This document shows positions 3,514-51,687 of a DNA stretch of 64,000 nt, piece after piece. The stretch is from Azolla caroliniana (taxonomy: Eukaryota; Plantae; Polypodiophyta). Every line of letters begins with the position of its first letter. The first letter of the stretch is position 1. The translations under genes and the position numbers were made by a program. The notes beneath the pieces were generated by a model that saw nothing but the letters and a program-made list of their open reading frames with translations, was not told where the DNA came from and ran no database searches. Location: the NCBI GenBank assembly GCA_043228905.1, contig JBHGNT010000013.1:7192001-7256000 (forward strand), in the 5' to 3' direction.

Positions 3514-4035
3514 CTTAATTATGTCGTGAAAAATCCGTCACTACGTGCGGATTGTGAGGCAGAACCGTCAGGGTTTTGGACTGAAAAGATTCGAAGTTTG
3601 CACTAGCTTTAGCAAGAAAGTATTTAAGATAGATTGAAAGAGAGAGAGATTAAGATTGAACCCTTGACTTTAGATTTGAGGAACAAAATATCATCATCAA
3701 TTGGATAACGAATTTTTTTTTTCTTATTAAATTCTTTATTAATACCTAGCTCGTTTTTCTTCTTCATCCACTCTTTTATAGATGCCCCCATGCATATAAT
3801 GCATGTGAGGGTACAAGACATGCATACAATGCATCGAATGCATGTGATGCATGTTTTCCATTTGGCGCTCATGCATTACATGTGGTACATGATAAGCATA
3901 TCACTCATTCAAGCTTTAATATGAGATTTTACATGTGAAAATATAATGATAGAAAAAGCATTTCTAAAGAAATGACTTGTCTTAGTAGTAAGCTTACTGC
4001 CTCCTATCTTGGAGGTGCAAGGTTCAAGCCTTGCT

Positions 4036-4331
4036 TGCATCGCTGTGTATACAAATTTTTACTAGGTTTTTTAGTCTAGATGATTTTGTTCGTTTCACAT
4101 TGAAATCATCGCAATCAACCTATCCGATCGATCCGTCTATCCGGTCCATCTAGTTCACATCTAACCCGGTGATCCGTCCGATCTGCATCGCTGTGTATAC
4201 AAATTTTTACTAGGTTTTTTAGTCTAGATGATTTTGTTCGTTTCACACTGAAATCATCGCAATCAACCTATACGATCGATCCGTCTATCCGGTCCATCTA
4301 GTTCACATCTGACCCGGTGATCCATCCGATC
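4036..4331. repeat. 148-bp tandem duplication inside the LTR
   Basis: tgcatcgctgtgtatac... starts at 4036 and 4184; copies nearly identical. Confidence 0.9.
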
Positions 4332-4949
4332 TGGTCCCGATTCCGTCTGTCGCCGTCTGTTCCCGGTTCCAGTCCCGGTCCCGATTCCGTCGCCGTCTTT
4401 TCCTGGTTTTAGTCCTGATTCCGTCGTCGTCGTCGTCATCCAGTCTGGTTCCGGTTCTCCAGAACCATTTTGAACAACTTAATCGTATCCATTCATCCAA
4501 GTTATACAACCCAACCTTTTTGTGCTCCTAACACATAGATAGAATATAAAGAGTTATAGCTCTACTTATATACTCTTGAACCCTGCTGGTGTCCTATTTA
4601 TGTGGGATATCTCATAGTTTTGTTTACCTCTTCTTCTTCTCAAACTTTATACTCACATAACTTGACACTAAGTTGTCCATTTCACATGTAGTAAAATGCA
4701 TTCGGAAGCTCTTGAAGACATCTATCTTTTCATACCAAGATATAATATAAAATAATATCTTCACTATTACTGTTTCATATTGTGTGTGAAGAACCACACT
4801 CGATTTTGTACATTCCATGCAATTTTCACATCGTTGCCGAAAATCTTCATGACAACGTGATTGGCACTTAAAGATAACACAATATCTTCATCGAATCGGC
4901 TTTCAAATGTCGAAATCCGACAACTCCCTGTACATATGAAATGACTCTG

Positions 4950-6480: not shown

Positions 6481-8675
6481 CACAAGAATCATATTCGATT
6501 CTTTACAAGGACATTCGGCGAAAATCGATGGGACTCACCAACGACGAGTTGGTAGAAGCCCATCACTCGACCGAGTCGATCGAGAGAACAAGCCGACAGA
6601 ACCGATCAAAACACTTGTCGATCGAGAAAGAGGGGAGATCAACTATGCTCCAAGTCGAGAAATAGTTGAGCAAGTGATTTCTGCACTCATTGCATAAAAG
6701 TCGATCACAACATTTCCGACTACTGGTCGATCAAGAGGAAAGAGAGCAGTCGGTGATTCGAGCGGAACCCAAGATGATCCAACTTGAACCGCTCTCCAGT
6801 CGCCAACCAACTCAATGTTGCTGATTCCCAATCAGGAGAAATCCTCTCTTTAGAGGATTGGATGGTCAAAGAAGTCCTCTACATGTGCACAACATGCACA
6901 CATGTGGTTATTTCATGTGACCCTAAACATCGAATGGTTTTCGAACTATTCGGCTAACGCCAGCAGCACTGCCTGACTTGGCAACGGGCAAGAGTGCATA
7001 ATAGTAGGGATCGGAGAGGTTCCCATTCGATTGTTGAAGGGCAACATGATCACCGTGCACCAAGTTCGGCATGTACTCAATCTAAAAAGGAGTCTAGTCT
7101 CCATCGGCATGCTAGCTGAAGACAGGTACATAACGACTCTCAATGAGTCGACATGGATGATCAACCGGGGAAATCTCAGAAAATGGAGTGGACACAAGTA
7201 CAATAACTTGTATCCAATAATGGTGATCAATCCAAGAGGGGTCGCGAACGTAGCCAAATAGACTGACCTAAACCTATGGCATGGCCGACTCGGTCATATG
7301 TCACAAGCCAGAAGACTGTTCCATACACACCCATGCAAAATGGAGTGATAGAACAGATCAATTGAACGATCTAGGAAAGGGTGACGACAATGCGCCAGCA
7401 AGGCAGACTAAAGCTTGAGTTCTAGGCTGAAGCGTTGCAAATGGCAGTTTACTTGATAAATCTATCACTGTCGAAAGCAATCAGCCTCGAAGTGCCACAT
7501 GTACTATGGTTAGGAAAATCACCGACCTACAATAGGCTCCGTATATTCAGACGCGAATCCTATGTATTCATGCCTAGGGAGAAAAGAACCAAGTTGGCTC
7601 CCCGTGCAATAAAATGCATATTTCTCGGTTATGGAACCAATGGGGAATTCGGCTACTGACTATGGGACCCAGAGAACTAGAAATTGATCTTGAGTAGTGA
7701 CATAGTCCTCAATGAAGACTCTATTCTCTTTTAGAGGAACCAACAGAAAATAGTTGGTAAAAAGGTATCCTTTGAAGGTGACAAAGATGTCGTAGAAGGA
7801 CTGACTCACTGGGCCAAATCGAAAGTTTGACAAATAGTCAATACCGACCAAGCAATCGACACCTTTGCCGACTTTGAATTGGCAAATGGTCCATTGGTTG
7901 ACACCGATTCTACTACGAAACTAACGAGAGGAGAGAGAGTCAAAAACATCATGTCTCCCACATAGACTAAGGCGTTGAAAGGCCGAGTCGAACCGGCCAA
8001 GACCCCACTCCCTTTATCAATCTATCCCAAAGAAGGGGAGGATGATTTGATATAATCACCAAAATCCTATCACAAGGGCAAATCATTCTAAAGGACTCCT
8101 GAAGATGGATTAAGTAATCCCAGTTAGCCAACCGAATTGACTAAAGAGGTTGAACCGACAAAATTGACACCTAGGGGATCCGGACAAGTCCGAAGGTTGA
8201 CAGAGTTTTATCAACCAGGCTTGGCCTATGTCAACTACATGGACGCAACGATTCGAGCTCCTATGAGGAAGCCATATTCCCGCTGAATCCCCACACATCG
8301 CTACAAGCCATGAGATCTGAGATGGACTCGATCCATCAGAACAATACATGGGAGTTGGTCGAACTACCTAGTGGAAGGAATCCGCTACCCTACAAATGGG
8401 TATTCAGATACAAAAATGTATCCAATTCGGAGAAACCCAAATACATAGCTCGGCTCATCGCAAAGGGATTCAAATAGCGACATGGGGTCAACTATGATGA
8501 TATATTCTCACTAGTAGTCAAGATGACCACCCTTCGGCTCCTACTTGGGGTCGTGGCGATAGCAAATCTAGAGCTCGAGCAGATGGACGTCAAGATGGCA
8601 TTCCTACACAGAGATCTGGAAGAAGACATCTACATGTCTCAACCGGAAGGCTCCACGGCGATGGGGAGGAGGAAG

Positions 8676-9116
8676 TGTTGCCTCTTAGGAAACACGGGCC
8701 GTGGTCAGTCCTTCGACCTAGACCCCAAGGTGGGTGTGGAACAACGAACAGAGCTTAATCATACTACGTAAGGAGAGAACCTCTGTGACTCCGCTGTGTG
8801 TAAAGGGAGACGGCTACAACCGATTCCTTCTCAAAAGTTGCGCTTACGTACTAATACGATTACGTATCCGAGACACTGACACTGAATTAGCCGTAGCTAT
8901 ACACAGAAACTCAGAGAAGATAGTATTCTATTATCAGGCGTTCTTTTTACAATTCCCAGAATTTACACACCTCCTTACGAGGTTTTCTGCCCTTTATATA
9001 TGTAGGGTCTAATTAGCCGTTCACGAGTACCCGCGTGAACCGTTACATACGTTACGCTTTATATAGTTTCTTTTTCCTACACTTTTGGCCGTCGGTTACT
9101 ATTCGGGCGGACAACA
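8676..9116 (-). repeat. Complete LTR (441 bp), 3' relative to gag-pol
   Basis: tgttg...caaca; minus-strand TATATAAAGGG; 8850-9116 matches 17313-17579. Confidence 0.9.
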
Positions 9117-9163
9117 CCTGGCACGCCTGTGGGACAGTGCCTTTGCACGTTGGACCCATCCCG

Positions 9164-11738
9164 TTAATTTTCTTCCAAAATGCCCCGGATGTTTGGCTCT
9201 ATTGTGGTGTCCTCGGCCGAAGTTGATGTAGGGCCCGTAGGAGCATCGTGGTGCGGCTCCTCTGCTTGGTCGGCCTGATTTCTCCCGGAGTCGCCTTCGC
9301 CGTGTGCGGTTGGTTCAGATACGGTGGGCTCTTCTTGAGTTCGTGGAGTGGGCTCCGCCGGTAGCGTGCTTGCTGTCAGCTGCTGCTCCGCCTCTATTGT
9401 TACGTCCTCCACGGTGTTGGCCATTTTTGTGTGTCCTTGGGCGTGGGGCGGGGATTTCGCCTGGTCCGCACTATTTTCCACATTTTCTGAAGATGGCGTG
9501 GGCTGGACCTTTTCTTGGTTAATTGTTTTGCTATCTGGTCTTGTGGGGAACTCCGCTCGTTCGTCCCCGCTATTCTCCTCCGTTGTCATCGCTGGTGATT
9601 GGTTCTGAGGTTCCTCTTCTTCGGCTGGGCCTGGAATTGGTGTCTCGTTGGGTTCCTCGTTTGTATGTGTGTTGCCGGTTTGTGTGATCTGGTGAAATAG
9701 CTCCTCCTGACTTTCACCAAAATCATCTAGGAGTTGTGCGAGTTCTTCGGAGTGTTGGTCTGCTAACGCGCGATAGTCTTGCGCTAGGTCCTCCCGTACG
9801 GTCGCAATGCTCTCCTCGTTTAGCTTATAAAACCGTCGGTCGTCTTTCCGCCGGTTCTCCCAGTCCGCACGATACGCGTGCAATTCCGCTGCTTGGGTTG
9901 CCCACGCCATCCATCCTTTGTCCAGTGCCGTTTTTAATTGCGCTGTGAACCTTTCCCGGTTGGTTTGGAGAAGGATGCACACGTTATCCGTGATGGCCTG
10001 GCAGCGGTTGCGTGCGTCTTCCATCGACTTCTGGAGATTTGCGATTTCCTGCTGTTTAACGGCTACCGCTTCCTCATACGTGGCCTTCACGCCCGCCCAC
10101 AGCTGGGATTCCTTTTCATGTTGTTTTTCTAATTTCCCCATCTAGTTTCTCTTCAAGCGTTTTTACGGCTTTTCGTCCGTTAGCCCGTATCTCCTTTTCT
10201 CTGTCGGAGGATTGGCGTAGCTCTGCTCGAAGGCGGTTAATTTCGGATTCCGCTAGCTGCACGACCCTTTTTGCTTTTGAGGCGATGGCGGTCTGAGCCT
10301 CGATTTCTTCTTTGAGGGTGTTGATAACGTGGTTCAGTGGCGGGGTTTCGTGTTGCGCCGTAGTCGTATGAGCTTCTAACTCGGCGATGCGTGTGTTGGC
10401 CTTTCGTAGTTCGGCTTCAGTCATTTTAACCTTCTTCCAGACATTCTTATTTTTTATGGCCATCTCCTTGGCGCCCGTGCTGACCTTTGCCAGTTCCCGA
10501 AGGACTTCGACTAGGGCCGTGTTTAAGGGTGGTATTTCCATCCCTACTCACCGTACCCCAGCGTTCCTCTGTCTGCCGACCCTGGCCAGCCGGTCCTCAT
10601 CGTCGCTCTCCGTTGTTTGTGTTAGGGCGCGCTCTATCATTTGTCGTTCTGCATGCTCTTCGGCCATGCATTGAGCGGTTTTGACTTGTTGTGCTACCAG
10701 GAACTCCATGAGCTCTAAAGAGGTCCTGAACTGCAAGAGGGCGCTGAATTCGTGGGACGTATCCGGAATATCCGGATATGCCAAAACCTCGCTTTCCGCT
10801 GTCAGTACGGCTTTCCCTCGCTGGGACTGAGTCGTAATAATCGGCCGCGGCTCCTAGATGATTTCGAAGGTGGTATTCGGCTCTGCTGTTGCGGGGCCTT
10901 CGCCTGCGGTTGGTGCCTCCGGATCTGTGGGGGCATTTTTTACCAACCCCTACCCATCCTTTCTGTCCAATCTGCGTTGTTTGGGTCTAGGGCTTTCCCC
11001 ACGTGCTTCGGTGGCTGGTTCTGGGGCTGCCTCCATGGGGTGTCTCGGTTGTTCCTCCTGTGTCGCCCGTATATCCGGTTGGTCAGTAGGAGGTGTTGTT
11101 CATGGGTCTGGTTGGGCCGGTTGGGGTTCCTCCTCCCATGTTGGGGCCGCTAACTCCGCTAACCTGCGTTTCGCAGAGCGGGGCGGGGCCATGGGTTGGC
11201 TGTTGGGCTGTGGTGCTGTTAGACCTCGGGGTGGAAATAGTACCGTAAGGTATTGTTGGATGATTGGCCGGAGCTTTTTGCCTGCTTGGTACGCATGCAA
11301 GACTTCCCGTAACGCCGGCCCTGTGATGACCCCCCAGTCGACTGTACGCCCCTCAAAGGTGTCGATAATGATGCCCGCCTTCTGTTTAGGCATTCCGTAA
11401 GCATTGACATGGACGCAGCCTACTTCCAGTAGGAACTTGGCCACTTCACGGAAGAAGGGATCCGGAATCTGTTTTGTTCTATAGGCTTTGGCGGAGGATG
11501 AGTATGGGCCAAAATTTCGCTGCAGCGCCTCTGTAGGAGGTATTTCGAAATGTCTTTCGCCTAGTGAAGATAGGTCTAACTTCTTCCGAATGGAAGAGTT
11601 TGTGACCGTGTCGATGTTAAGCCGCCTGGCGATGTCCATGGCGTCCGGGTGCGGAGATGCTTCTGCGACCCGAAGATAACCATCTAGGCGCTTCTCCACG
11701 AGCCATCGGCGTAGGGCAGTAGAGATGAAGATCGGCAT
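9164..11738 (-). pseudogene. Additional ORF downstream of integrase: N-terminal globular domain, Pro-rich linker, long coiled coil, acidic tail (~850 codons; stops and one frameshift)
   Basis: ORFs 11100-11924, 10548-10784 and 10116-10541 share one frame; 9164-10141 follows a frameshift; heptad-like E/K/A/L-rich sequence. Confidence 0.7.
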
Positions 11739-12078
11739 CGCCAGGGTAGGTTCGTGGGGAGGCAACGGGTAGTATTGGTGAGTTAGAGCTCTGAGATGTG
11801 ATGGGGAAGAAGGTGAGGAGGAGCGATGGGAGCATTGATAGCTAGACTCTGTATTTCTGCTTTGTGCAGAAAACCTTCTATTTCCTTCTTTTTGTGGCTT
11901 AGGGTTCCTTGGGCGGTGAGCCATCGTGGTGCCACTTGTTCTTGAACTAGGAGTTTGTGCATGCCTTTAGTCGTTTTAATAGTCGCTATCTTCTCTTTCT
12001 TTTTTCTTTTTCTTTTTTTTTTCCTAACGGTTAGTTACCCCCTATTTTTACATTATAGTACAATTGGGCCTGTCCCTT

Positions 12079-15000
12079 TTACGCTACGGGTTCTCCGGAT
12101 TTGTCCCGTTCGGCGGTGAATGGGTTAGGTGGCCTAGGGCCCATGTAAGGTTTGAGCCAAAACCCATTCACTTTTTGCCGTACTATTTCTCTAGCCAGTG
12201 TTCCTAGTTGGAACGTGCCCTGTTCCACTCCAATTATCCAGTATGGGCCGGTCCAGCGGAAACGTAGCTTACCCGACGTGTTTGAAAAACTAGCACTGCT
12301 CGACCCACAGTGAACTCCTTTTCCCTTGCGCTCCAATGCCGATCGACAAATGCTTTATGCCGTCGCTGTTCTTCTTCCAACACAGCCATGCTGTGGATGC
12401 GTTTCTCCCCTAGTTCGAGGAGTTGGTACAGACGTTCCTCCTCTGACTTGGTTTTTGATAATTGGTTTCGTACCTGAATGCGCAAAATAGGTACCCGGAA
12501 TTCGACCGACATTACCGCTTCTAGTCCAAACGCTAGCCGGAACGGTGTTGACTGTATGCTCGTTTTGTAACTAGTTCTGTACGCCCATAACGCGCTTTGG
12601 AGTTTGGTATCCCAGTCCGTTCTGTTTTCATTGACGGTTTTCTTTAAAATGGTCTATAAAGTTTTGTTCGTGGATTCGACTAATCCATTCGCCTGAGGGT
12701 AGTATGGCGTGCTTTTCTTGTGGATGACTATGTAATGTTGTGTTAGTTCCCGAACCACCGTATTGAGGAAGTGGCTCCCCTAGTCACTGATGAGCTCAAT
12801 CGGGCAACCGAACCGGCACCAGATGTGCTCGTACAGAAATTTGGCTGTGACGGCCGCCGTATTTTCCCGTAGTGCCTTTGCTTCTACCCATTTGGTACAG
12901 TAATCCGTGGCTACCAATATGTATTTGTTACCTGTACGGGCTGCTGCTGGTGTGAAGGGCCCCACAAAATCCAATCCCCACTTTTGGAAGGGGTCCAGTG
13001 GTAGCACGGGCTGGTGTGACATCCTTGCATCCTCCGCGGGCTGACCCATCCGCTGGCACAAATCACACTTTCTACAATACTCGGATGCGTCCTTCTATGT
13101 TGTTGGCCACCATAAGCCCGCCTACCATACTTTGCGGGCTGTCACGTTGCCTGCGTAATGGCCGCCGGCCGTGCCGCAGTGTGCCTCCCGTAACATTGCT
13201 TCTTTTTCATCCTGACGGACTCCCCGTCGCCAAATGTCGTCATTTCCTGTGTGATATAAATACCCTTCGACCAGGCAGAAGTGACGGATTCGGACGGCTA
13301 GTCGTTTCTTCTCGTCTATGTGTAATTGTGGTGGAGGTAGTCCTGTAGTCAAAAAGTACGTCATTTCCATAAGCCATCGATCCGGAAAGGTGTATTCCGT
13401 TTTTTCTGCAATCGTCGCTACTCGCCAGATGTCGGCATCCGGAAAATCGTCGTTGTCTTTCTGTACTGTTTCTACACTCTCAAGTCTGCTCAAAAAATCC
13501 GCCACTGCGTGTTGCGTCCCTGGCCGGTGCTAAATTACGAACTCGAATTCCTAGAGCAGCAGCATCCACCGTGCCAATTTCCCTGTCAGGGCTTGTTTCT
13601 CTACCAAATACAATAATGTCGAATGATCCACGTGGAACGTGAATTTCCGTCCTAGTAAATAATGTTGGAATTTATTGATGCTATAGATCATCCCTAGCGC
13701 CTCCCGCTCTGTTGTGGAATAGTTACGCTCTACTGCTGATAATTTACGACTTGCGTAGTATATTGGCCTGTACCAGTTTGGTTTGGTGAGTTGCATTAGC
13801 ACGCTTCCTATTGCTGTGTCCGAGGCGTCGACGAACACGTGAAATGGTTTCGCCCAAACAGGAGGTTGTACTATGGGGGCCTGTGTAAGCATTTTCTTAA
13901 GTGCCTCATATTGCTTATCCTCTGTTGCAATCCATTGAAAAGGAGTCTGATGTACGGTAGCGTGTAGTGGCGTGGCGAAGTCCGCCAAATACCGTATCAT
14001 CCGACTATGCCACCGTATTTGGCCCAAAAACCGGCTAAGTGCTTTGGCATTTGTCGGAGTTTTAGCTTGCGTAATAGCGGAGATCTTGTTTGGGTCGACT
14101 GCTATTCCTTCCTTACTGACTATGTGGCCTAGGAGAGCCCCGCTGGTCACGCCGAATGCACATTTCGCGGGATTCAGGCTTAAGCGTGCAGTGCGGCAAC
14201 GTTCCAGGCAGAGACGTAAGTGTGAGAAATGGTCTTTTGTTCGCCCATATACCGCAAAATCGTCTAAAAAGACTATCATGAACGTCGGAATGTATTCCCC
14301 AAAGATCTCCGTAATTGTTCGTTGGAATGTTGCCGGTGCTGTCTTTAGGCCGAACATCATGACGACCGCCACATATACTCCCCAGTCCGTGACAAATGCC
14401 ATCTTCTCCTGGTCGTCGGGGTGCATGCGCACTTGGTTATAGCCACTGAAGCCATCTAAGAAACTGTACATCTCATGGCCTGCGACGGCGTCCAGCACGC
14501 TATCAGTGAAGGGTAAGGGAAATGCGTCTGTAATGGTTACGACGTTTAATTTTCGGTAATCCCCGCATACCCGTATTTTGCCGTTTTTCTTTGGGACAAC
14601 CACTATCGGGCTAAGCCGTGTCGCTTGTTTTACTGGTCGTATGACCCCCGCCCTCAGCAGTTTGTCAATTTCTTCTTTCACACGGGTCGCGTAATTAGGG
14701 TTCATGCGGTATCGACACTGCTGGACAGGTTTCGCGTCTGTTGCTAAATTTATCTTATGCTGATAGAACTTGGGATCTAACCCCTTCATGTCCTCATGAG
14801 CCCACACGAACACATCTTTATATTCTGTGAGTAGTGCGATCATTGTGGTTCTCTGGTCCGGCCTCAATTCCTTTGCTATGGAGAGGAACCGGGGTTTCGA
14901 TCCCATACCCACATTCACTTCGTCGAGAGCGGAAGCGGTGACCCGTCGTGAAATCTCCATTTCCCTTTCGAAGGCCGCCCGTGCTCTGTTGAGTTCCAAT

Positions 15001-15938
15001 ATGGACTCTGGGTTTGGTTCGTACGGCTCTTCGCTTGGAACAATGGTCGTAGTATATTCTGCCGCAGTTGCGATGACATCTATCTCTAACAACGGAATAA
15101 TCTGAGGATGTTCGTCAAGGTATGCTTCCAATTCGGCATCCTCCACCCCAGCCAACATATTGATGTCTTCCGCATATAACGGTGTTATCCCCTTAGGTTG
15201 GGGCGTGTTGCCTTCTGTAGGCACACGAACCTTGATGCGTCCCTGCCGGAAACTGATACACTCGTGTTGCCAGCTTTGCTTGATATTTGTTGTCCGAAGC
15301 CACAGTCTGCCCAGAAGCACTGGGTACGCGCGAGGCGCGTCCAAAGCGAGGACAACCGCCGATATGTCGAAGCGGTGTCCGCCCATGATGATGCCTATTT
15401 TGCGAATTAGCCCCAATGGTCGCACTGATTAGGTATCTGCCATGCGAAGCCAGAATGGACACGCCTCCCATTCAGAAATGCCAAGCTGTTCGCAAGTTTT
15501 CGCGCTAATCACATTGACGCCTGAGCCGCCGTCAATTACACATCTAGGGACTTCCTGTCCGTGCAATATTACTGTAATGGCCGGGTAGTGCTGATCTACC
15601 ACTGGTGGTCCCTCGCTGATGTCAGTTAGGTTTGTGGCAATGCTTGCCCCAGTCGTGCCCGCCACCTGTGCTTCCATGGTCTGGCAGAAACGTGGAACTA
15701 GCTGTAGCAGTTTTTCCATAGTTAGCGTGATTTCACAGCCCGTTAACACCTGCCAAATGGGGTCCGGCCCCGTTTTTTCGTTCTTTGTTTGCTTCATTGC
15801 ATTCGCGGACTCCTGCCTCATACGCTCCGTATTGGCCGCGTTTGCTTTTTCCACCCAGGCTTGGGCTTGTCGGCGTACCTTGTCCTGCGCAGCCCAATCC
15901 GCCGTTTTCGTTTGCTGGCGTGTGGTGACTTGTTGCAC
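12079..15938 (-). pseudogene. pol: pol (protease IDGGSG, RT FLDD, RNase H VDAS, integrase HHCC/DDE, GPY motif), interrupted
   Basis: ORFs 15429-15938, 13551-15425, 13122-13505, 12780-13061, 12079-12336. Confidence 0.92.
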
Positions 15939-16185
15939 CTCCGTCGTAATCGTGTGGACGGCGGGCCCCTTTCCCTTGCATGTTGGGCATTGTGTGGCAT
16001 AATGTCCGGGTTGCTGACAAATAAAACAGTGGATGCTTGATTCTCCCTTCTCAACCCTAGGTGGAGTGTGCCGTTCTCCGGGCGCTACTTGCTCTTCGCG
16101 GTCCAGCCTCGTTTGTCGGGACGTACGCGGTGGCTGTTGTTGATCCCGTCATTGTTCCTGGTGCCACTCATCCCCTGAGCTTTCA

Positions 16186-17223
16186 TCATTGAAGCCATTG
16201 AAGCCGCCCCGTTTGTTCATCGAGCGTTGATGTTCGTATCGCCGGCCTCCTTTGGCGTAACTCAGATGTCCACAATAATCCTCGTCCTCCGGGTCCTCCT
16301 CCTCGGCGATTCCGGTTGTACTTGTCCTCCCACGGGTTGCGATCCCTATACCGGGGTCGGTCTTCTTGCCTCTTTTGTTCCACCCGATGTGGTTGCCGCT
16401 GTGTGTCCATGTTGCGGACCGCAGGCGTAGCTCTATTTAACATATTGTACTCGCATTGGTCAACTGTGTGAACCTTCAAGTGGCAGATTGGGCAGTGGAT
16501 TCGCATATTGCACTCCATCACGGAATGCCCAGAGTTCAAGCAAATCGTACACTAGATTGCCTGACGAAATTGGTGTTCCTCATCCTAAGGTAATGCTTGT
16601 CGTAAGGATGACATCGAAAACCTCTCCTCCTCGTCATCCAACTCGAGCTGTAACGCTCGTTCAATCACCATATCTGTCGTTTCCCCTTTCATGTTATTGT
16701 TGTTGAGAGTTGCCCTGATGGGCTGGCGTAACGCTGCCAGAAACATTTCCCGTGCATCCTCCTCCGTAGGGCTTCGATCCAGTTTCCGTCATAAATTTTG
16801 GAACCGTAAGTTGAAGTTTGCTATTGTCTCAGTCGGTAGTTGCTTAATTGTATAAAACTGCCCGAGAATCTCGCGTTGTGGAACCCTCCGGTGAAAAAAA
16901 CGCAAGAAGGCGGACTGGAGCTGATCGAAGGTTGTTATGGCCGGTAAATCCATTTGTGAATGCCAGAATGCCGCACGCCCATCTAATGTTAATCCGAACT
17001 CCATCATTTTCGACTGGTGTGCCACTGTCTCAGAAAGGTTCTGTGCCATGTGGTTCGCATTCCAAACGTTCAAGAACATGCGAACATGAGTTGCGGCGTC
17101 GGTTTCGCCATTAAAGCGGGGGTAGGCAAAGGCCATCATAGGAGCTACGGCGGATCGGAGAAGGTCACTGGGAGGCTGCGGTAATCGTGGTCCCCTCGCC
17201 TCGTCGAGGTATTTGGGGAGCAA
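16186..17223 (-). pseudogene. gag: gag with capsid-like region and Cys/His zinc knuckles
   Basis: YPRFNGETDAATHV...IKQLPTETIANFNLRF; GHSVMECNMRIHCPICHLKVHTVDQC. Confidence 0.8.
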
Positions 17224-17312
17224 GGACTCCTCTTTGCGCTCCTGGCAGGTATTACTGGGGTCGTCGATGCGTGGCTTTTGCCGAGCGCGCTCTTCTGCCT
17301 GGCATGTGACGA

Positions 17313-17579
17313 ACTACTACGATTACGTATCCGAGACAGAGACACTGAATTAGCCGTAGCTATACACAGAAACTCAGAGAAGATAGTATTCTATTATCAG
17401 GCGTTCTTTTTACAATTCCCAAAATTTACACACCTCCTTACGAGGTTTTCTGCCCTTTATATATGCAGGGTCTAATTAGTCGTTCACGCGTACCCACGTG
17501 AACCGTTACATACCTTACGCTTCATATAGTTTCTTATTCCTACACTTTTGGCCGTCGGTTACTATTCCGGCGGACAACA
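17313..17579 (-). repeat. 5' LTR, internally truncated (U5 side and adjacent primer site deleted)
   Basis: 267 bp matching 8850-9116; fused directly to gag-upstream sequence. Confidence 0.9.
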
Positions 17580-17804
17580 GGAAGGTCACCACATATGTTG
17601 ACAGAAGAAAATCCTTTACGGCCTAAAACAAGCGTTGAGGATGTGGTGCCAAAAGTTGGACTCCTACATTAGGCAGCTTGGCTATCCCCGGTCCGACTCT
17701 GACCCATGCATGCATACTCGACAACTAGCCGATGAGTCCCGAATCTATCTGAACCTATATGTCAAAGACATGCTGATTGCAGGGAGCAATCAAGACAAAT
17801 CGGA

Positions 17805-30485: not shown

Positions 30486-33109
30486 CTTTCTCTTCCTCCG
30501 AATTCCACCATGGCAAGGAAACCCACCCAATCCTCTTGTTGGTAGCTTATTGTACACCAGAGGTATTGTTCGAGGATTTGGTTGACTCTTTTGGTTTGGC
30601 CATCAGTTTGAGGGTGGTACGCTATTGACAAGTTCACAGAAGTCCCAAATGTTTGCAAAAGTCGTCGCTAGGAGTGGGAAATAAATTGAGGACCTCAATC
30701 AGAGGGAGAGATCACGATGGACATCTTGTAAAGTGTGGGCACGCATCTCTACCAACGGATTGACGAAAATCGCAGGAATGGAAATGCTGAAACGAGGGTG
30801 GAACCCATAGTTTGCAAAGAATGAGGAAACATCAATGGAGGCATGGATACAATTATTGTAGGCAAATTCCACCATCGCAAGGAAGCCCACCCAATCCTCT
30901 TGTCGGTAGCTTATTGTACACCGGAGGTATTGTTAAAGGATTTGGTTGACTCTTTCGGTTTGGTCATCAATTTGAGTGTGGTATGTTGTTGACAAGTTCA
31001 CAGAAGTCCCAAATGTTTGCAGAAGTTGTCGCCAGGAGTGGGAAATAAATTGAGGACCTCGATCAGAGGTGACATCCTCGGGTAAGCCATGTCAACGAAC
31101 GACATTTTTTAGAAAAAGATCCATCGTCTCCTCCCCGAAATGGTTTTTGAGCATGGGACAAAGTGAGCCATCTTTGAAAACCGATCAATGATCACTAGCA
31201 CTGTGTCATAGCCACCGACGTGAGGGAGGTTCGTTATAAATTCCATCGAGAGAGAGGCCCATGGTCGACTAGGAAGTGGAAGCGGGTGGAGAAGGCCGTA
31301 TCGACGATGGTGAGCCGCTTTGGAGTGGGCACATACATCACACATCTTGATAAATTCTTTGACAAATTTCTAAGGTTGGGGCCACCAAAACCCCCGAGAT
31401 AACAACTCCAATATGTTCGCGACCCCAAAGTGGCCGACAAGAGGATCATCGTTGCAATTTTGTAGGACTCAAGTGCGACATGCTGCAACTAGTACGTAAA
31501 GGAGGTGATTACGATAGAGTAGCCCATCCCGAGTTGTAAAGTGACTGAGGTCCGTGCTTTGCATTCCCTAGGATGGGTTGTTGATGTGCGCTAGGATGTT
31601 GGTAGCAAATGGCTCTAACATGGTGGCCTGGGCGATTTCGTTGAGCAAGGAATCATCATGCAACATGTAGGTTGCAAACATTGTTGTGAAGATTTTCGGC
31701 AATGGTGTGAAAATCACATAAGATGTACGAAATCAAGTGTCAATCATATAAAATAATAATAGTGAATATACTAATTCTAAGTAAGTTTAATATCTTAGTA
31801 CAAAAGACGAAGATCTTGAAGAGATCCACTTTACTACATAAGAAACGGACATCTAAGTGTCAACTTATGTGGGTAAGAAGTTGCGAAAGAAAAAGAGAAA
31901 ATACGGACATCTTTGTATCTATGTGTGGAGCATAGAGAGTTCAAGGTAACTTTAACTAAGAGTGGAGGTAGCCTAGCCACTCGTAAAGGTTTTGCCCAAC
32001 CAAAACGGAACTCAACGGTAACCGGCATCCAACGGAGCCAGCGAGGCGGCGATATCTGGCATCCGGCGGCAATGGCATTCGGCGACCAAATTAATAAATA
32101 TATATATATATCACATATATATACAAGGAGGGCAAGTAAGGATTTGAACCTTGCACCTCCTAGTTACGAGTCAATAGGCTTACCACTAAGCCATGACATT
32201 TAGTTGAATTTATATTTCTATCATTGTACTTTTACATGTAAATTCACATACATGAGAGCTAAAATGAGTGACATGGTTATCATGCACCACATGTAATACA
32301 TGAGCGTCAAATGGCAAACATGCATTTTATGCATGTCTTGTACCCTCTCATGCATCATATGCATGAGAGCATCTATAAAAGAAGGGATGAAAAAGAAGAA
32401 GGGTTAGGTTTTTTTGGTTATGAAATTAAGAAGAAGAAAATTCGTTATTGAATATGAGAAGAAGGGAAAAGTTACTTCGAACGAAGTAGAGCTTGTGGAT
32501 CGAAGTGTACAAAGTATAACCGGATGGTCGGATCCGGTGGACGACAACACCATCCTCGCGGAGGTTATGTGCGACAACCACGAGGTGTTCGTCGAAGAAA
32601 AGAGAAAAAGAATAGAAGAGCAAGGCCCATCAAAAAGACATGAAACAAGGAACGCGAAAAAGAAGGACGATGTGGAGACGAGTCGACCTTCACAAACAGA
32701 GGAACGAGAATCAAGCCGAAAAGGGGAGCCGAGCATAGGAGTTGAAGAAACGGTTCTGCCTGTGAAGGTTGGTGTGGAAGACCCCGCTCGGAGGACAAGG
32801 GCTATGCCTACCTATAAGCTAAGGTCGGACAAAGAGCAGATGACGGACCTAAAGAAGATTTTCAAAGAACGTGTTCTTGATAGCCACGTAACTTTGTCCT
32901 AGAGGGAATTGCTTGGCATTACGAAGGAGTTCCATGACATGATCATGGACCTTGTAAAAAGAAAAACACAACAATCGGAAGAGGAAGAAGAGAAGCTGCA
33001 AACAACAAAAACAAATGCCATAACGATGGCAAGAGAGGAAGTCATTGAAGATATGGTGGACAGCCACTATACTCGAGCTCATTGGGCATGAGCGACAACG
33101 GAGACACCG

Positions 33110-36100
33110 GTGAAGATCGGGGAGAAGAAAGAGACTGTGGTAGCCTTGATCGACCACGGCTCGGAGATCAACCTCATGTCAACCAACTTCTACAAAAAAG
33201 GAAGATGGCCAATCAATACAAACCATAGATGGAAGATTCGCGCGACAACAAAGTCTACAGAGGACTTGTACGGAGCTTGTCCCAATGTGAAAGTCACGAT
33301 CGGGGATGTGGAGATGGATCAACACTTCTTCGTGCAAGAATCGGTGTAGCATCCTTTCATCCTAGAACAACCGTATATCATATCATCTCAGATGGAGACC
33401 AAAGTGTTCGATAATGGAGCAGCCTTCGCACGAATAAAGAGTCTTGACAACCAAAGATTGGTCCAATTCCTAACGGTGCGAGCCAATCATGAAAGGAATC
33501 AAGATAGTCTCGGAGGCGAATCCTCGGATTTTTAGAGAGGACTATTGAAGCATGGGGCACAAATAGTCCGAGCAATCACAAGACCCCACAAGAAAGAAGA
33601 GTGTGTGGATTGCGAGGAGAAGCAACATGTGTCACACCTAGTGGCGCATGTAGACTAGTACTACCCAACAAGAAGGACAAGCGTCGGATACAAGAATTCG
33701 AGAAGATGCTGAAAGAAGAAAACATAATAGAAGAAGGAGAGTTTGTGACTCATATTATTGAAGAAGCCTCATTTAACGACACCATCGGCGAAATCGAGGA
33801 AGTCGTGGACTTGAGCTATCTTCACGATCATTACGTGATTTCAATTAACTCTGTCAACATGTATGCTACCATCGATGAATACCGTCGTGGTATCTCGATG
33901 AAGGAAGCTGACATCAACACGAAATATAAAACGGTGGATAAGAAGATCAAGCCAGTTGCGGTTCCGCTACCGGAAGATAGCTGGCAAAAGATGAAGGAAG
34001 TCGCTAACGATCCAAGTTTAAGAGATCTGAAGACGATAGGTCATGCTACGAGTTTGAAAGGAGGATTTCCTTCTCCCTGAAGAGGAGCGAAGGTTTCGCA
34101 ATATCCTTGAGAGACATGGGAAGGCTTTCGCATTCTTCCCACGAGAAATCGGATGTGCCAACCCAAAGGTTAGAGAGCCAATGGTGATCTTCACGGTGCC
34201 TCATGTGCCTTGGAATTTGAAACCGATACCGGAGCCGAGAGCACACCTTCCGAAGTTGATCGAGCTCTTAAAGGAGAAGGTGAGTATGGGAATTCTAGAA
34301 CCGTCGAATGCTCCTTATTCCAATAGGTGTTTCACGGTGCCAAAGAAGAATGGATCATTGCGATTCATCCAAGATCTTCAACCCATCAATAAGATGACAA
34401 TTCGAAATGCCGGAATCGGTCTGAGCATGGACAAATTTGCTGAAGTGTTTGCGGGCCAGTCCATCTACTCCATTGGCGATCTCTACTCCGGATATGACCA
34501 ATTCCAATTGGCGATCGACAGTCGGGACATTACAACCATGAAGACTCCTATCGGGCTTGTGCGGATGTGTATCTTACCCCAAGGCGCAACGAACTCAGTG
34601 GCTCATATGGTGAATGCCATGAATAAAGTCTTGAAGGATTGCATCTCAGACATCACGATGCCATTCTTGGATGATATTCCGATAAAAGGATATTCGGATG
34701 AGGCGAAAGATGAATCGAAAGATAAGGAAGGTTGTAGAAAGTTCGTTGCAGATCATATGAAAGATTGCGAGAAGGTGCTTCAAAGGCTCGAAGATGCGAA
34801 TTTGACATTTTCGGGAGAAAAATCTGCATTCGGGCAACCAGAGATCTTGGTGGTAGGTCACTTGTGTGGGGCATACGGCCGGAAGCCTTCACCATACAAA
34901 GTGAACGCGATCCAAGACATGAAAGAAGAATGCGAAAACCAGACGGAGGTTAGAAGGTTCCTTGGAGCATGTGCATTTTATCATATATGGATTCCGCACT
35001 ACGCTCATGTCGCCAAACCGTTATATGGGTTGCTAAAGAAAAGAATGAAGTTCGAATGGTGAGACGAGCACACGAACGCAATGCGAAGATTGAAGAAACT
35101 ACTTCTTGAAGCTCTAGCACTAAGAAAAGCTAACTATACCGAAGGAAAGCCGATTTATGTGACTGTAGATACGAGCCCAACCGGAATTGGGTGGGTCATC
35201 AACCAAGAAGGAGAAGATAATGCGCGGTATGCCATCCGGTTTGGAGCAAAGGTTCTTAGAAAGAGACAACAAAGATACACCCAAGTCAAGCGGGAACTTT
35301 GGGGTATTGTGTCGGCACTGAAGACGGACAAAGACTACCTGATCGGGTTGGAAGTAATAATTGAGACAGATTGTCTCCCAATCCTCGGGATGATCTCAGG
35401 ATGTGCAACACCAGATCTAGCTATGCTAAGGTGGATCGCCTATATTAAGTCTTTAAACCCAGAGATCCGCCATATTGCAAGGAAGAAAAACGCCATGGCT
35501 GACATGCTGTCGAGGGCAAGATTTGAGAATGAAGGTGACATGGTTTCGGAAGATGAAGACGTCACCCTCGACTTCTTCAAGATGGCTCCACTATCGGCGG
35601 AAGACAAGGGCACGCTAACCCTCCACACCTTCAACGAGGACGAGTACGAAGGGGAGTGGTTACTAATCGGCAAATTCCTAAGAACGATGACGACAGATGC
35701 TTCGTTGACGAAGGAGGAGGCCCTACGAATCCGGAAGAAAGCCTACCAATACTTCTTGAAGGGAGGATTCCTTTGGCGACACCCAAAAAGAAGGACAGGA
35801 ATACCACGTCGAGTGGTGGTGAAGAAAGAAGAGCAAGTGACGCTAATGACCAAATTCCACGAGAGTGCTTGGGCAGGTCATAGAGGAGCATGGGCGACGT
35901 TCGAGAAGATGAAGGAGAAGTACTGGTGGCCAAGCATGTACAAAGATGTACGTCATTTCGTGTCCACATGCGAAACATGCCAAGTACATTCGAATATACG
36001 TCATCGTGATGAGCTACAACCGACATACCCACTCACCATACACTTCAAATGGATGGTGGATCTGGTCTCAATGCCAATGGGAGTGGGACAAATGAAGTAC

Positions 36101-36992
36101 TTAGCTCTGGCAAGAGAAGACTTGACAAATCAAGTGGAAGGATGGGCCTTGACAAATAAAACAACGTCGGCTGTTTGCAAATTTCTACTCGAAGAAGTTG
36201 TCTGTCGATACGGATGTGTGGGAAAGATAGTTGCCGACCGAGGAGAGTTGGATGCACACGAAGCGACGGAGCTCTTTGAACGACTAGGCGTGAAGCTCTC
36301 CCTCACGACTGCCTACAATCCAGAAGCGAATGGGAAGATCGGGCGAGGGCATGGACCTATCATTAAAGCCATCGTACGGGCATGCAACGGTCGAGTAGGG
36401 AATTGGCCACGATTATTGCCCTATGCCTTGTGGGCCAACAGAACAACACATAGCTCGGTGACGGGGTATATGCCAACGGAGCTTATGTATGGACAAAAGC
36501 CGGTAATGCCCATCGAAAGGATGATCGTCTCATGGGTAGCGATACAATGGGAGAACGAGATGAGCCGAGAAGAGTTATTAGCAACATGGATAAGGCAACT
36601 TGAAAGGAGACCTGAAGATCTAGAAAAAGCGCGAAAGATGTTGGAGGCAGCCCGAGTGAAGAACAAAATTCGGTTCGACAAGACACATCAACTACGTCCC
36701 AAGAAGATCGAAGAAGGAGATTGGGTATTGGTCTACAACAATAGCCTTGACAATCAACACACTACAACAAGAAAGTTCACAAGAAGATGGTTCGGGCCGT
36801 ATGTGGTGACAAGTGCCCACAATCATGCCACATACCACCTTGCGGAGCTAGACGGATCAAGGTTAGCCCTACCCATTGCAGGAAAAGAGTAAAGATTTTC
36901 AAGAAAAGACAAGACAAGGATCCTGACCCCGATCACCTCGATGATGAACATAATAGGGCGGATGTAAATGAAGACATGGAGGAATCTGATTG
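33110..36992 (+). pseudogene. pol: protease-RT-RNase H-integrase with a few stops and frameshifts
   Basis: IDHGSEIN; RT FLDDIPIKG (34181-35062); RH VDTS and INT HHCC/DDE, WFGPY (35081-36892). Confidence 0.92.
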
Positions 36993-37661
36993 ATCACCGT
37001 AGCCGAAATCTCACTTTCTCTCTTCTTGGCACGTACCGGAGGACGTGCGGTTTGGTGGGGGTGGATGTTGTGAAGATTTTCGGCAATGGTGTGAAAATCA
37101 CATAAGACGTACAAAATCAAGTGTCAATCATATAAAACAATAATAGTGAATATACTAATTCTAAGTAAGTTTAATATCTTAGTACAAAAGACGAAGATCT
37201 TGAAGAGATCCACTTTACTACATAAGAAACAGACATCTAAGTGTCAACTTATGTGGGTAAGAAGTTGCGAAAGAAAAAGAGAAAATTGTGAGATATCCCA
37301 CATAGATAGGACGAATAAGGCTCTCATCATATATGAGGTAGAGCAAAAGTTATTATCTTTGTATCTATGTGTGGAGCATAGAGAGTTTAAGGTAACTTTA
37401 ACTAAGAGTGGAGGTGGCCTAGCCACTCGTAAAGGTTTTGGCCAACCAAAACGGAACTCGACGGTAAACGGCGATCGGTGATCCGGCGGAGCCAGCGAGG
37501 CGGCGGCGGATCTAGCGATATCGACATCCGACAGAGCCAACAAGGCGGCAATATCGTCATCCAACGGGCCGACGACCGGCGATATCTGGCATCCGGCAGC
37601 AACGGCATTCGGCGACCAAATTAATAAATATATATATATATATCACATATATATACAAGGA

Positions 37662-37715
37662 GGATTCGAACCTTGCACCTCCTAGTTAAGAGTCAATAGG
37701 CTTACCACTAAGCCA
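37662..37715 (-). promoter_or_regulatory. tRNA-derived Pol III A box (TGGCTTAGTGG) and B box (GGTTCGAATCC) inside the LTR
   Basis: Consensus boxes at tRNA spacing with a CTCTTAAC anticodon-like loop; homologues at 32140-32193 and 3976-4032. Confidence 0.72.
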
Positions 37716-40700
37716 TGACATTTAGTTGAATTTATATTTCTATCATTGTACTTTTACATGTAAATTCACATACATGAGAGCTAAAATGAGTGACATGGTT
37801 ATCATGCACCACATGTAATACATGAGCGCCAAATGGCCAACATGCACTTTATGCATGTCTTGTACCTTCTCATGCATCATATGCATGAGAGCATCTATAA
37901 AAGAAGGGATGAAAAAGAAGAAGGGTTAGGTTTTTTTGGTTATGAAATTAAGAAGAAGAAAATTCGTTATCGATTTGATGGTGTAACTTGTTTCTTAAAA
38001 TCTAAAATCAAGAATTCAATCTTAATCTCTCTCAATCTAAAGTCAAGTGTTCTATTCTATCTCAAGCTCTCTCTCTCTTTCATTCTAGCTTAAGTACTTT
38101 CTCGCTAAAGCTTGCACCAACTTCAAGTTCTTCCGTTCCAGAACCCCGGCGGTTCCGCCTCATGATCCGCGCGTAGTGACGGATCTTCACGACAACATCT
38201 GGAGTTGACCAAGTGGTAATAAAAAATGTGATTGCTGAGAATATGCGTCATCACCTGGGCATAGCGCAAAATCTTGTCTCTGAGAGAGGGCATCCGCTTT
38301 CCCATGTTGAATGTCAGGTCGAAACAATATTTTGAAGTCGTAGTCGGCGAGAAAAGATGACCAACAAGCCTATCTCCGATTCAACATACGACTGGTGGTG
38401 AAGTAGATGAGATTCTTGTGGTCAGTCAGCACCTAGATACGATGTTGGGCCCCAGCGAGATAGGGTCACCATTCGGCGAAGGCAGAGATGATAGTTGCAA
38501 GCTCCTTGTTGTAGACCGGATAATTGATTTCTGGCGATGTAAACTTTCGGGTAGAAAGGCGACCGGATGTAGTGTGTCATTGTCGTCTGGTTGGGATAGA
38601 ACCACGCCAATGGCGAAGTCGCAGGAATTGGTCTCAACCTGGAAGGGTCTCTTGGGGTCAAGGTGAACCAACACTAAGGCTAAGAGAAAAGTTGCTTTGA
38701 GGCTCTCAAAAGCATTGTGTGTCGTGGGGGTCCAGAGAAATGGAGTATCTTTTTGAGTAAGTTAGATAACAGGTTGCACGACGGAAGAAAACCCGTCTAT
38801 AAATTTTCTATAGAAATTTGCCAAACCAAGAAATGATTGTACCTCTTTCAATCGAGTCGAGAGAGGCGAATCAGTGATTGCCGCTACCTTGTGCTTATCC
38901 ATTGTGATCCTGGTGGGTGAGATCATGTAACTCAGGAATTCGCCAAAGGTTCGATCGAATTCACATTTCTCACTTTTGGCGTAAAGCCCATATTCCCAAA
39001 GTTTGGTTAGTACCAACCGGACGTGTTGTGTGTGCTCCTCTAAGTTGGAAGAAAAAACTAGGATGTCATCAAGGTAGTTTACCATGAAGTGATCGAGGTA
39101 CTCTCGAAATATATCGTTCATCATGTGTTGGAAGACTGCTAGGGCGTTGGTAAGACCTAAATGCATCACCTTGTACTCGAAATGCCCATAGCGCGTCCGA
39201 AAGGCCGTTTCCCACTCGTCCCTAGGGTTGATGCGCACTAGATTGGAGGCTCCCGAAGGGACCAAATTCCCAACAAGCTCCCCCTTCACTCCGGCATGGG
39301 ATGTCTTGTCAATCCAATCCGTCTCCTACACGCATCCAGCTTGTCAGCTGACAACACCTTCATCAACATATCCGATCCGTTTTCTTCCGTGTGGATCTTT
39401 ACCAGCGCGAAGTCTTGATCTTCTACTCTCTCCCGGAGCCAATGGTATCTACGTTGGATGTGCTTCGTCCTGGAATGATAGGCCGCGTTCTTCGCAAGGT
39501 GGATGACACTCTAACTGTCGCAGTAGAGCCGGAATTCCTCTTGTCAGATCCCTAGCTCTCCGATGAAGTCCTTCATCCAGATTACCTCTTTGCCGGCTTC
39601 CATGGTTGCCATATACTCTGCTTTAGTTGTCGACAATGCAACAGACTTCTACAACCTCGACTGCCACGATACAACTCCCCCTACATAAGTCATGACCAGA
39701 CGGTATCCGCATCAGCCGACATATCCGAATCCGTGAATCCTTCAAGTTGGGGTTTTCTTGAGGTGAATCGGAGGCACATACTTGAGGTGCCTTTCAAGTA
39801 CTAGAGTATCCAGTTGACCACAGTCCAGTGTTCTCTTCCCAGATTGCGCATGAACCAGCTGACCATTCCGACTGCATATCTGATATCCAACCGGGTACAC
39901 ACCATTGCGTACATCAAGCTTCAGATGGCAGAGGCATATGGTATCTTCATCATCTCCGACTTCTCTGCCTTTATCTTCCGGCTTTGCTTTCCAGACAGTT
40001 TGCAGTTTGTCGGAAGTGTTGACCCAACCGGCTTAGCATCTGACCTACTGAATCTTTGAAGCACCTTTGTCATGTACTTCTCTTGTGACAACCACAACAA
40101 CTTCTTCGTCCAGTCCCGGACTATGTGCATCCCAATATCTGTCTTGTCGGACCTAGATCTTTCATTGACAAGGTTCGCTTCAAAGCCTTCTTCAAATTTC
40201 CGATTTTGATCCGGTCCGATTCGACGATCAACATGTCATCCGCATACAATAGTAGTATCAGGAAGTCTCTTCCGTTGAACTTGTTCACAAACACGCAGTG
40301 GTCGGCCTGAGTCTTGTGGTATCCTTGATTGGTCATGAAGGAGTCGAACTTCCAGTACCATTGTCGGGGAGCTTGCTTCAGTCCGTATAAGCTCTTCTTC
40401 AACCGGCACACTAGGTGCTTCTTCCCTTTCTTGACAAATCCTTCTAGTTGTTGCATGTAGATCTCTTCTTCGAGGTCGCCATGTAGAAATGTCGTCTTGA
40501 TGTCTAGTTGCTCTACCTCGAGGTTCATGCTTGTTGCTATGCTCAACACAGTCCGGATGGATGTCATCTTGACTACTGGGGCAAAAATCTTGTCGAAATC
40601 CACTCCTTTCTTTTGTTGGAAACCCTTCACCACGATTTGGCCTTTGTATCTCGGTGGGTTTTCAGCATCTCCTAGTTTTAACTTGTACACTCACTTGTTC

Positions 40701-46436: not shown

Positions 46437-46950
46437 TGTAAAACCATACGCAAAATATGGTTGTGGCAATGTTTAAACCGAAAAGCCGTTATAATGATTT
46501 TTCTCGTAAGGAATAGTTTTGGGAGTTAGTGTAGGAGGCTAATTTATGAGTGGTGAAGTACAATCAGTACTTGTGTCAGCCCAATAGTCGAGGCTTGTAT
46601 AAAAGGTGCTCACTGAGCACGAAATATGTAACAGAGAACATATAGAGAATTATTTTGAATATAGTTTTGTATTTCTGCTCTCTCTATCTCTCCCTCACTT
46701 TCTTTGTGATTTTTGTGCTTTACCGAACTGACGTACTACCGAACCGTGTACTCTGTGTTCTTACGCATACGATTCCGCACACGTATTCTTTTACATGGTA
46801 TCAGAGCACGAGGGTTGAGACTCCTTTGGAGCCAACATAAAAGCTTGCGATAAAGATAGAGTTAACTTATTGTCTTCGGAAAGGATGGAGCTCGATAAAG
46901 ACAACAATATGGAAAGAGGAATGGGAAGCTCGCTACCGACTGAGGAGCTC
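46437..46950 (+). mobile_element. 5' LTR (46437-46795) with iMet PBS (46796-46807) of an unrelated LTR element, truncated
   Basis: tgtaaaa...ttttaca followed by tggtatcagagc; TATA tataaaagg ~46598. Confidence 0.8.
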
Positions 46951-47187
46951 CGTCGACGTATTGCCGAATGGTTGCAACGGCTTTCCGGTTCAGAAGCCTC
47001 CATTCCGACTCAAGTACCCCCTTCGGTATTTCCGACCTGTCAATCGGTTCGTACAGGTCCCGAACAATCAGAAGATCCTCCATCTTGATCTTCCAGTCGG
47101 CGTAATTCTGCGCATTCAGCACCATCATCCCCGGCTGCCCGCTGCCGCCGCCTTCCATTTTCTGCAGCAGTCGCTCTGATACCAGTT

Positions 47188-47796: not shown

Positions 47797-47806
47797 AACT
47801 CCCCCT

Positions 47807-51189: not shown

Positions 51190-51687
51190 TGTTGAGAATC
51201 GCCGTTTCGATTCTCCTTCGTCTCTTCGGCCACAACCGAGTAGTCGCGAATCAATGCAGCAGAAAAAATAGGAAACCACAGAGAAAGACACGATACACAG
51301 GGATTAACGTGGAAAACCCTAAACGCGAAAAAACCACGGGAGTCCTCAAACTCCAACTATCACTATACGCAGAGATGTACAATGGTGAAGCTACAAGGCA
51401 ACAACCTTGAGCTCACTATCTTCGCCACAGGCGGCGGTAATACACAGAGGCGTCGACCTCTTCCTTTCTCTCTCTCTCTCTCTCTCGCGGCTGCTCTCAC
51501 TTCGCTCCCTCAAAAAAAAAGGAAAAACAGAAACTGAGCAACAACAGCAGCATAAACAGTTTGCCCTAAGTCATATTTATACACATATGACTTTCGGGCT
51601 ATTTACAAATATAGCCTCAAGGGCCCTTGGCAAACATATTCACAAATATGTCCCCGCATCCGGATCTCTCTCTCCGGGTACATTCGT

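Follow-up and report, generated by a model that had tools for sequence, protein, structure and literature searches.

The 64,000-nucleotide stretch of Azolla caroliniana contig JBHGNT010000013.1 analyzed here (hereafter the window) contains a Ty3/gypsy element of about 8.9 kb, which occupies 17579 to 8676 on the minus strand between the copies of a 5-bp target-site duplication (TSD; Table 1). The element is inserted in a decayed copia RT (8175–8675 and 17580 onward), which resumes in frame-like fashion past the right TSD. Its TG...CA LTRs and its TSD are those of Metaviridae, and its domains follow the order gag-PR-RT-RH-INT; the related locus L004 has one 1886-codon frame. A reading made from the letters alone (the sequence-only reading) had put gag-pol and the LTR TATA on the minus strand and taken the LTR at 8676–9116 for the 3' LTR, and the TSD, the domain matches, and the strand of the TATA-like box agree with that orientation. 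The box was found on the gag-pol strand in all six LTRs examined and on the opposite strand in none (0/6), and a TAATAGAA-type signal follows it by 40–70 nt in five of the six, the sixth LTR being cut before the signal. The 5' LTR copy is identical to the first 271 nt of the 3' LTR at 258 of 271 positions. The deletion that had been read at this end of the element was confirmed by alignment with L002, relative to which about 280 nt are lost at the gag end (170 nt of LTR, the PBS, the leader, and the gag start).

Table 1. Features of the Ty3/gypsy element and its flanks, in window coordinates
Feature	Position	Strand	Remarks
Left TSD, GGAAG	8671–8675	+	Within copia RT fragment; RVT_2 match 8178–8768
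3' LTR, complete, 441 bp, TG...CA	8676–9116	−	End-to-end alignment with 458-bp 5' LTR of L002
Putative polyadenylation-type signal, TAATAGAA	8926–8933	−	Function presumed
TATA-like box, TATATAAAGGG	8990–9000	−	Same strand as gag-pol
Spacer, 2 nt (CC), LTR to tRNA site	9117–9118	+	2 nt in 6/6 copies
Block 1 of tRNA site	9119–9135	+	Complement of tRNA-Arg 3' end, positions 76 to 59, minus one acceptor-stem base
Inserted small hairpin	9136–9149	+	Stem 9137–9140 with 9145–9148
Block 2 of tRNA site	9150–9159	+	Complementary to the T loop and the 5' strand of the T stem (tRNA positions 58 to 49); window copy decayed
Extra sense ORF past integrase, four fragments	9164–11966	−	Single 976-codon frame in L004; ends just before tRNA site
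N-terminal domain of extra ORF, folded	11226–11738	−	Weak structural likeness to VANC21
Integrase (rve), interrupted by stops and a frameshift	12079–13529	−	
RT and RNase H	13551–15428	−	RNase H acidic motifs present; second RNase H absent
gag (Retrotrans_gag, zinc knuckle) and protease region, broken	15429–17313	−	
5' LTR, cut after 271 nt	17309–17579	−	Deletion takes U5, PBS, and gag start
Right TSD, GGAAG	17580–17584	+	Copia RT resumes beyond; loose read ends at 8666 resemble right flank

The tRNA-matching site next to the 3' LTR

The plus-strand primer of Metaviridae/Ty3 elements and retroviruses is, according to the available portions of PMC7879559, PMC5371799, and PMC12789967, a tract of about ten purines, A or G (polypurine tract, PPT). 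As the sequence-only reading had reported, none abuts the 3' LTR in the window, where no purine run within the last 30 nt is longer than 5; across all six copies with the tRNA site, the longest runs are 3–5 nt. Also as reported, a motif in PBS geometry, TGGCACGCCTGTGGGAC, was located on the plus strand 2 nt past the LTR end (...ACAACA). It is the single match in the 64 kb at three or fewer mismatches, with a chance mean of 0.12. The 17-nt site thus stands as it was read, but the feature proved longer, with about 41 nt that comprise a tRNA 3' end, a small hairpin, and the 5' part of a T-arm. On the cDNA strand the order is LTR, 2 nt, block 1 (17 nt), an insert of 13–15 nt, and block 2 (about 10 nt). 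On the genomic RNA block 1 is the sense copy, its CCA end falling at the PPT position and, in 6/6 copies, 2 nt before the TG of the LTR. The motif had been described as 1 nt shorter than its tRNA counterpart, which holds against the fetched tRNA-Arg ends in every copy (6/6), whereas the 5' PBS retains that acceptor-stem base. The missing base is a clade-wide trait and not a lesion of the window copy.

The stems of the insert differ between families: GTGC/GCAC in the window, GGGC/GCCC in L003 and L004, GTAC/GTAC in L011 and L017, and a decayed form in L043. These pairs were read by eye, as MAFFT misplaced the hairpin gap in the alignment. The stem sequence varies in a compensatory manner that keeps the pairing, while the tRNA-matching blocks are conserved, which points to pairing with an invariant outside molecule. 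An outer stem, GTGGG with CCCAC, can self-fold and so mask a portion of the site; next to this stem is a base pair that seems to covary, being C-G in L003 and L004 and T-A in L043. The hairpin tip on the cDNA strand is C-TT-G-like in three families, the RNA equivalent being an AA/AAG loop. Such pyrimidine hairpin loops may favor the DNA strand; a literature search for a preference of the C-TT-G loop found no source.

Bacterial ends stood in for the host tRNA in the comparison with tRNA-Arg. A two-block T-arm/acceptor pattern built from the motif matched 25 bacterial loci, a design that makes the T-arm match circular but leaves the anticodon outside the pattern; ARAGORN called 21 of these tRNA-Arg and 1 tRNA-Asp and made no call over the match in 3. 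One bacterial tRNA, L096:120–194, has an Arg-type body and the ARAGORN call tRNA-Asp(atc). When the last 28 nt (five distinct bacterial 28-mers) were paired with the six sites, energies of −32.6 to −47.9 kcal/mol were obtained with RNA parameters applied to an RNA:DNA hybrid. Pairing with both blocks, the hairpin being looped out, went beyond all 200 shuffles in 28 of the 30 pairings made with these stand-ins from a motif-derived pattern. By the putative numbering, the insert falls between tRNA positions 58 and 59; position 58 is a methylated RT stop. For a stand-in tRNA-Arg 18-mer, the observed score was reached by 2 of 25,590 windows of 25 nt, both over the site, a lenient comparison in that the stand-in is motif-derived. 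Matches of 12–14 nt to this kind of tRNA end are also seen in the 5' PBSs of the clade, so short pairing suffices for the RT of the clade. ARAGORN identified no tRNA gene in the window and none in 35 of the 80 element loci described below.

Relatives and the gag-end PBS

Relatives were collected in a metagenome scan with the RT-RH alignment, and the best 80 of at least 521 confirmed loci were used. Five of these best 80 (L003, L004, L011, L017, and L043, the last tied to the clade by homology of the extra ORF) reach a recognizable 3' LTR junction of the clade. Together with the window they represent about four families, with all contigs from one accession series, a narrow sample. The same 17-nt site lies 2 nt before the LTR in all five, though most of their LTRs no longer align with that of the window. 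The sequence-only reading had allowed for a normal PPT in other copies of a rearranged element; the site was found at 5/5 related 3' junctions instead. A single LTR lies between the site and the PBS in L011 and L017, which reflects either tandem copies or a collapsed assembly. L022, from the sister clade, stops before its 3' LTR. Six distant JGI loci with paired LTRs (38–47% RT-RH identity) have a purine tract before the 3' LTR, with runs of 8, 8, 11, and 11 nt in the four measured. Among viral contigs no relative was found by protein (9 pattern matches, 0 confirmed) or by motif, and the motif was not found in the genome contigs collection.

Four of 16 sequencing runs, from three samples and two coded organisms, were mapped on 8600–9400. 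The bin that contains the motif has the highest summed depth in 4/4 runs, and positions 9117–9143 show no substitution among the 40 of 151 listed and no indel among the 12 of 18 listed in these runs. The junction of LTR and motif is bridged by 1 of 32 listed read pieces under a 31-letter rule. Common run variants were 9144 T>G in the hairpin and 9151 T>C in block 2, with loose ends at 9143.

A sense-strand PBS was found 4–7 nt past the 5' LTR in seven contigs, of the type TGGCA(C/T)GCCTGG in L002, L003, and L004 and of the type TGGCGACCAC in L007 (42–60), L011 (918–935), L017 (885–902), and L030 (19–36); L010, in which a PBS-like site at 194 has a doubtful context, was omitted from this count. 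The TGGCGACCAC type is also present in the distant PPT-bearing loci L069 and L070. In L003 and L004 the PBS, gag-pol, the extra ORF, and the 3' site are all encoded in one contig, and both long frames of L004 (1886 and 976 codons) are unbroken. Coverage of the PBS was high when the four runs were mapped to the L002 junction, which 3 of 32 listed pieces bridge, and the run consensus at the 5' junction of the window family is TGGCACGC(C/T)TGGTG. Loose ends at the left end of the window LTR likewise show TGGCACG on the gag strand, followed by an eighth base that differs (agreement only 0.7–0.8). The 5' PBS typical of Metaviridae, deleted in the window copy, is therefore present in the relatives and in the runs of the family. 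In L011 and L017 this PBS has switched to TGGCGACCAC with the 3' site unchanged, so the 3' site is not coupled to the PBS type. A U3 stretch at 9078–9097 (minus strand, GGCCAAAAGTGT) is complementary to the U5/PBS junction of L003, L004, and the loose read ends, and common run variants at 9081 and 9088 disrupt this complementarity.

Placement of the element and its extra reading frame

The window was placed in a quick RT tree together with 33 of the 80 loci and 45 proteins (79 rows in all). One 17-row clade of this tree (SH-aLRT 99) contains all six rows that have the tRNA site, the rows that have a PPT lie in a second clade, and the deeper nodes are tentative; the closest named proteins, from Riccia, Adiantum, and Marchantia (38–56%), suggest a host among the non-seed plants. 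The sequence-only reading had used a Tat-group label. A second RNase H (aRH) was found neither in the window pieces nor in the whole polyproteins P0001 and P0002, and the tRNA-site rows lie apart from the aRH-bearing rows in the quick tree. Because aRH is absent, the Tat assignment (TatI–III, Ogre, Retand) was ruled out and that label was dropped. According to the portion of PMC6317226 available, TatIII, Ogre, and Retand do share a tRNA-Arg PBS with this element, and aRH is what sets Tat apart from it; the same portion gives plant non-chromoviruses (Athila, Tat, Phygy, Selgy) a non-Met tRNA PBS and no chromodomain match, as found here. The RT forms its own clade apart from angiosperm and pine rows, which are taken as Athila by a label assigned in this quick tree without a reference set. 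The 5-bp TSD, the lack of aRH, and the extra 3' ORF are Athila-like traits, the first and last of which PMC6317226, in the part available, gives for Athila/OTA. Athila PBSs, however, match tRNA-Asp/Asn/Ala (Asp/Asn in that part of PMC6317226), and those of this clade match tRNA-Arg-type ends. Phygy and Selgy, also considered and set aside, have a 4-bp TSD, a tRNA-Trp or tRNA-Ala PBS, and no extra ORF, against a 5-bp TSD, an Arg-type PBS, and a long extra ORF here; the available part of PMC6317226 likewise sets their Trp/Ala PBS and their TSD apart from those of this element, whose RT clade is its own in a tree without Phygy or Selgy references. On these sequence traits, the element is classified as an unplaced non-chromovirus outside Tat.

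In 6/6 copies (the window, L003, L004, L011, L017, and L043), the extra ORF closes with a short acidic motif that is conserved (9164–9190 in the window), and its stop lies 10–25 nt before the tRNA site. The N-terminal domain of the ORF (L004:7207–7710) has 76 relatives and 333 representatives. After a first poor fold (pLDDT 52), a confident fold was predicted (pLDDT 92), for which the sole match above Z 5 among 48,161 chains was a VANC21–DNA complex (9lnk_A; Z 6.4, below the confidence threshold of the structure-search tool; rmsd 3.7, 161 of 171 residues aligned), the next match having Z 2.6. VANC21 is an anti-silencing protein. Foldseek returned nothing for the extra ORF at E ≤ 0.001, and Pfam returned sub-threshold matches only. 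An RNase III/dsRBD identity (scores 0.77–0.82) is not supported by the fold. The predicted structure suggests that the N-terminal domain is of a DNA-binding, anti-silencing type and not a nuclease for the hairpin.

Candidate primers for the plus strand

The clade shows a real and conserved departure from PPT priming, the mechanism of which we infer from its sites. The CCA end lies where the plus-strand primer must end, so the site presumably supplies that primer. As judged from the sequences, a second host tRNA, tRNA-Arg, probably primes plus-strand DNA at the 3' site, a reading to which we lean with some reserve. Minus-strand synthesis would be primed by a tRNA at the 5' PBS, as usual, and after first strand transfer RNase H would clear the RNA over the 3' site. 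The tRNA-Arg could then pair through its 3' 10–17 nt with the minus-strand cDNA just upstream of U3; its T-arm may pair as well, the DNA hairpin being looped out where tRNA positions 58 and 59 meet. RT would extend from the CCA of the tRNA via the 2-nt spacer into U3, RNase H would remove the tRNA like a PPT primer, and integrase would trim the 2 nt after CA. With the balance tipping modestly in its favor, the wider proposal is that a whole plant Ty3/gypsy clade does without a PPT and that host tRNAs prime both strands from two inward-facing sites, the second being a split 28-nt T-arm/acceptor cDNA site with a DNA-tuned hairpin; this would make it the first LTR retroelement known without PPT priming.

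The held tRNA letters, the covarying hairpin, and the failure of the site to track the PBS switch of L011 and L017 favor pairing of a host tRNA with cDNA. Against a tRNA acting in trans, the missing base forces a bulge that perfect tRNA pairing would not need, and the foldable outer stem with its flanking covariation appears to fit a structural role. The clade-wide missing base and the foldable stem keep alive a model, unlikely in our estimate but to be taken seriously, in which the genomic RNA provides the primer in cis: its own tRNA-like piece (hairpin plus CCA tail) would escape RNase H, be cut after CCA, and prime the plus strand as a structured replacement of the PPT. Position and polarity are indeed those of a PPT, 4/6 MFE structures of the genomic-RNA motif show a long hairpin whose 3' tail is free, and neither the missing base nor the flanking covariation requires a tRNA partner. 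Folding of the whole motif, however, is no stronger than that of shuffles on either strand (RNA z +0.39 to −0.98), and the outer stem and T-loop letters hold the tRNA sequence instead of covarying. A mixed GC-rich RNA/DNA hybrid is normally cut by RNase H, and the RNase III lead for the extra ORF found no support in the fold. It is very improbable that the 3' LTR gives rise to a short antisense transcript on which the site would act as a true PBS and a tRNA would prime the plus-strand strong-stop DNA: the PBS geometry on that strand is exact and loops of the CUUG type are stable tetraloops in RNA, but no antisense TATA match exists in 6/6 LTRs and an extra packaged RNA would be required.

The site could instead have another job (recruiting or packaging of tRNA, joining of the RNA 5' and 3' ends via the PBS, or RT pausing), with the plus strand primed by an unrecognized RNA fragment nearby. 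In the window family and in L003 and L004, 8–10 nt of the sense 3' motif are complementary to the 5' PBS, and Ty3 offers a precedent in 3'-UTR tRNA contacts for minus-strand priming (PMC5371799, in its available part). This pairing drops to 4 nt in L011 and L017, however, the Ty3 3' segment is, as far as that source goes, complementary to tRNA on the RNA whereas the RNA here carries the site in tRNA sense, the constant gap of 2 nt before U3 is that expected of a primer end, and no other purine tract lies nearby; we regard such a role as doubtful. The sequence-only reading had put forward two models, dual tRNA priming and an antisense genome. The sense PBS at the gag end in seven contigs is the outcome it had named for dual tRNA priming, the antisense branch was rejected, and the tRNA-like RNA of the element itself was added as a third model. 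An RNA reverse-transcribed in the direction opposite to the gag-pol mRNA, with the 3' site as its only PBS, would account for the PBS geometry at 9119, but the gag end has a sense-strand PBS and no opposite-strand purine tract (seven contigs and the family runs), and the TATA boxes and poly(A)-type signals face gag-pol, which makes this model scarcely credible. The window copy is old, broken, and deleted at its 5' end, as a rearrangement or chance match would have it; the presence of the site at 5/5 related 3' junctions, with L003 and L004 refuting this directly, the intact TSD, and the deepest coverage over the site in four runs reduce its probability almost to nil.

Dual tRNA priming can be set beside known systems as far as the available parts of the sources describe them. 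Canonical Metaviridae/Ty3 elements share the U3-R-U5 LTRs, the PBS past the 5' LTR, the gag-PR-RT-RH-INT order, and, if the favored reading is correct, an RNA that primes on DNA immediately ahead of U3; they differ in having a PPT there, where this clade has none and carries a tRNA-matching site in its place. A conserved PPT junction is likewise given for Athila in the accessible text of 10.64898/2026.03.20.713144. In the bipartite PBS of Ty1/Ty3, T-arm contacts are split in blocks, one Ty3 block being at the 3' end, and the 3'-UTR tRNA contacts of Ty3 serve minus-strand priming (PMC5371799, in part). Extended T-arm contacts in split blocks are common to both, but the Ty1/Ty3 blocks are complementary to tRNA on genomic RNA, for the minus strand, and Ty3 keeps its PPT, whereas the blocks here match tRNA only on the cDNA strand. 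Helenus TRIMs are also LTR elements with tRNA-derived sequence; according to the part of PMC10886601 available they are non-autonomous, have the tRNA-like part inside the LTR as a Pol III promoter, and keep PBS and PPT, and a priming role was excluded by the author. Self-priming in Tf1/Tcn1 likewise lets the RNA of the element substitute for the standard primer, but of the minus strand and with the PPT kept (10.1101/2022.12.06.519325 and PMC6317226, in their available parts).

The statement that neither model had been described for plant LTR elements agrees with our literature search, which found no description of an LTR element that lacks a PPT and has an inverted tRNA site; subscription papers and Repbase were thinly covered, and absence from print is unproven. 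Such an element is absent from the available parts of PMC6317226, PMC11963269, 10.1101/2022.12.06.519325, PMC5014426, 10.64898/2026.03.20.713144, PMC5371799, PMC10886601, PMC7879559, PMC4408406, and PMC12789967, and the motif was not found in five REXdb supplement text files of PMC6317226, which apparently do not include the per-element PBS table. A text search for the motif brought up 104 papers, and the titles of the 20 listed concern other subjects. Minus-strand priming is known to vary (whole tRNA, half tRNA, self-priming), and the sources, in their available parts, treat the PPT as constant in retroviruses and Metaviridae. A second tRNA starting the second DNA strand would, if true, be an undescribed way of retroelement copying. 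Under either this model or that of a cis primer, a high-copy clade without a PPT indicates that the plus-strand priming step can be rebuilt. It opens to test, with L004 at hand as an intact natural element, how RNase H selects primers, how tRNA is used on a DNA template, and how sensitive both strands are to tRNA fragments. Such elements would be missed or given the wrong orientation by annotation programs for which a PPT is obligatory.

Other retroelements are present in the window. A young tandem copia array at 46947–64000 has shared LTRs, 4.2-kb blocks that are 99.7% identical, and internal repeats of 1442 bp. Another Ty3 element occupies 31682–37973, with RT, RH, and INT at 34058–36892 between LTR-like repeats at 31682–32451 and 37066–37973, and an inverted relative of its LTR is located at 3522–4858.
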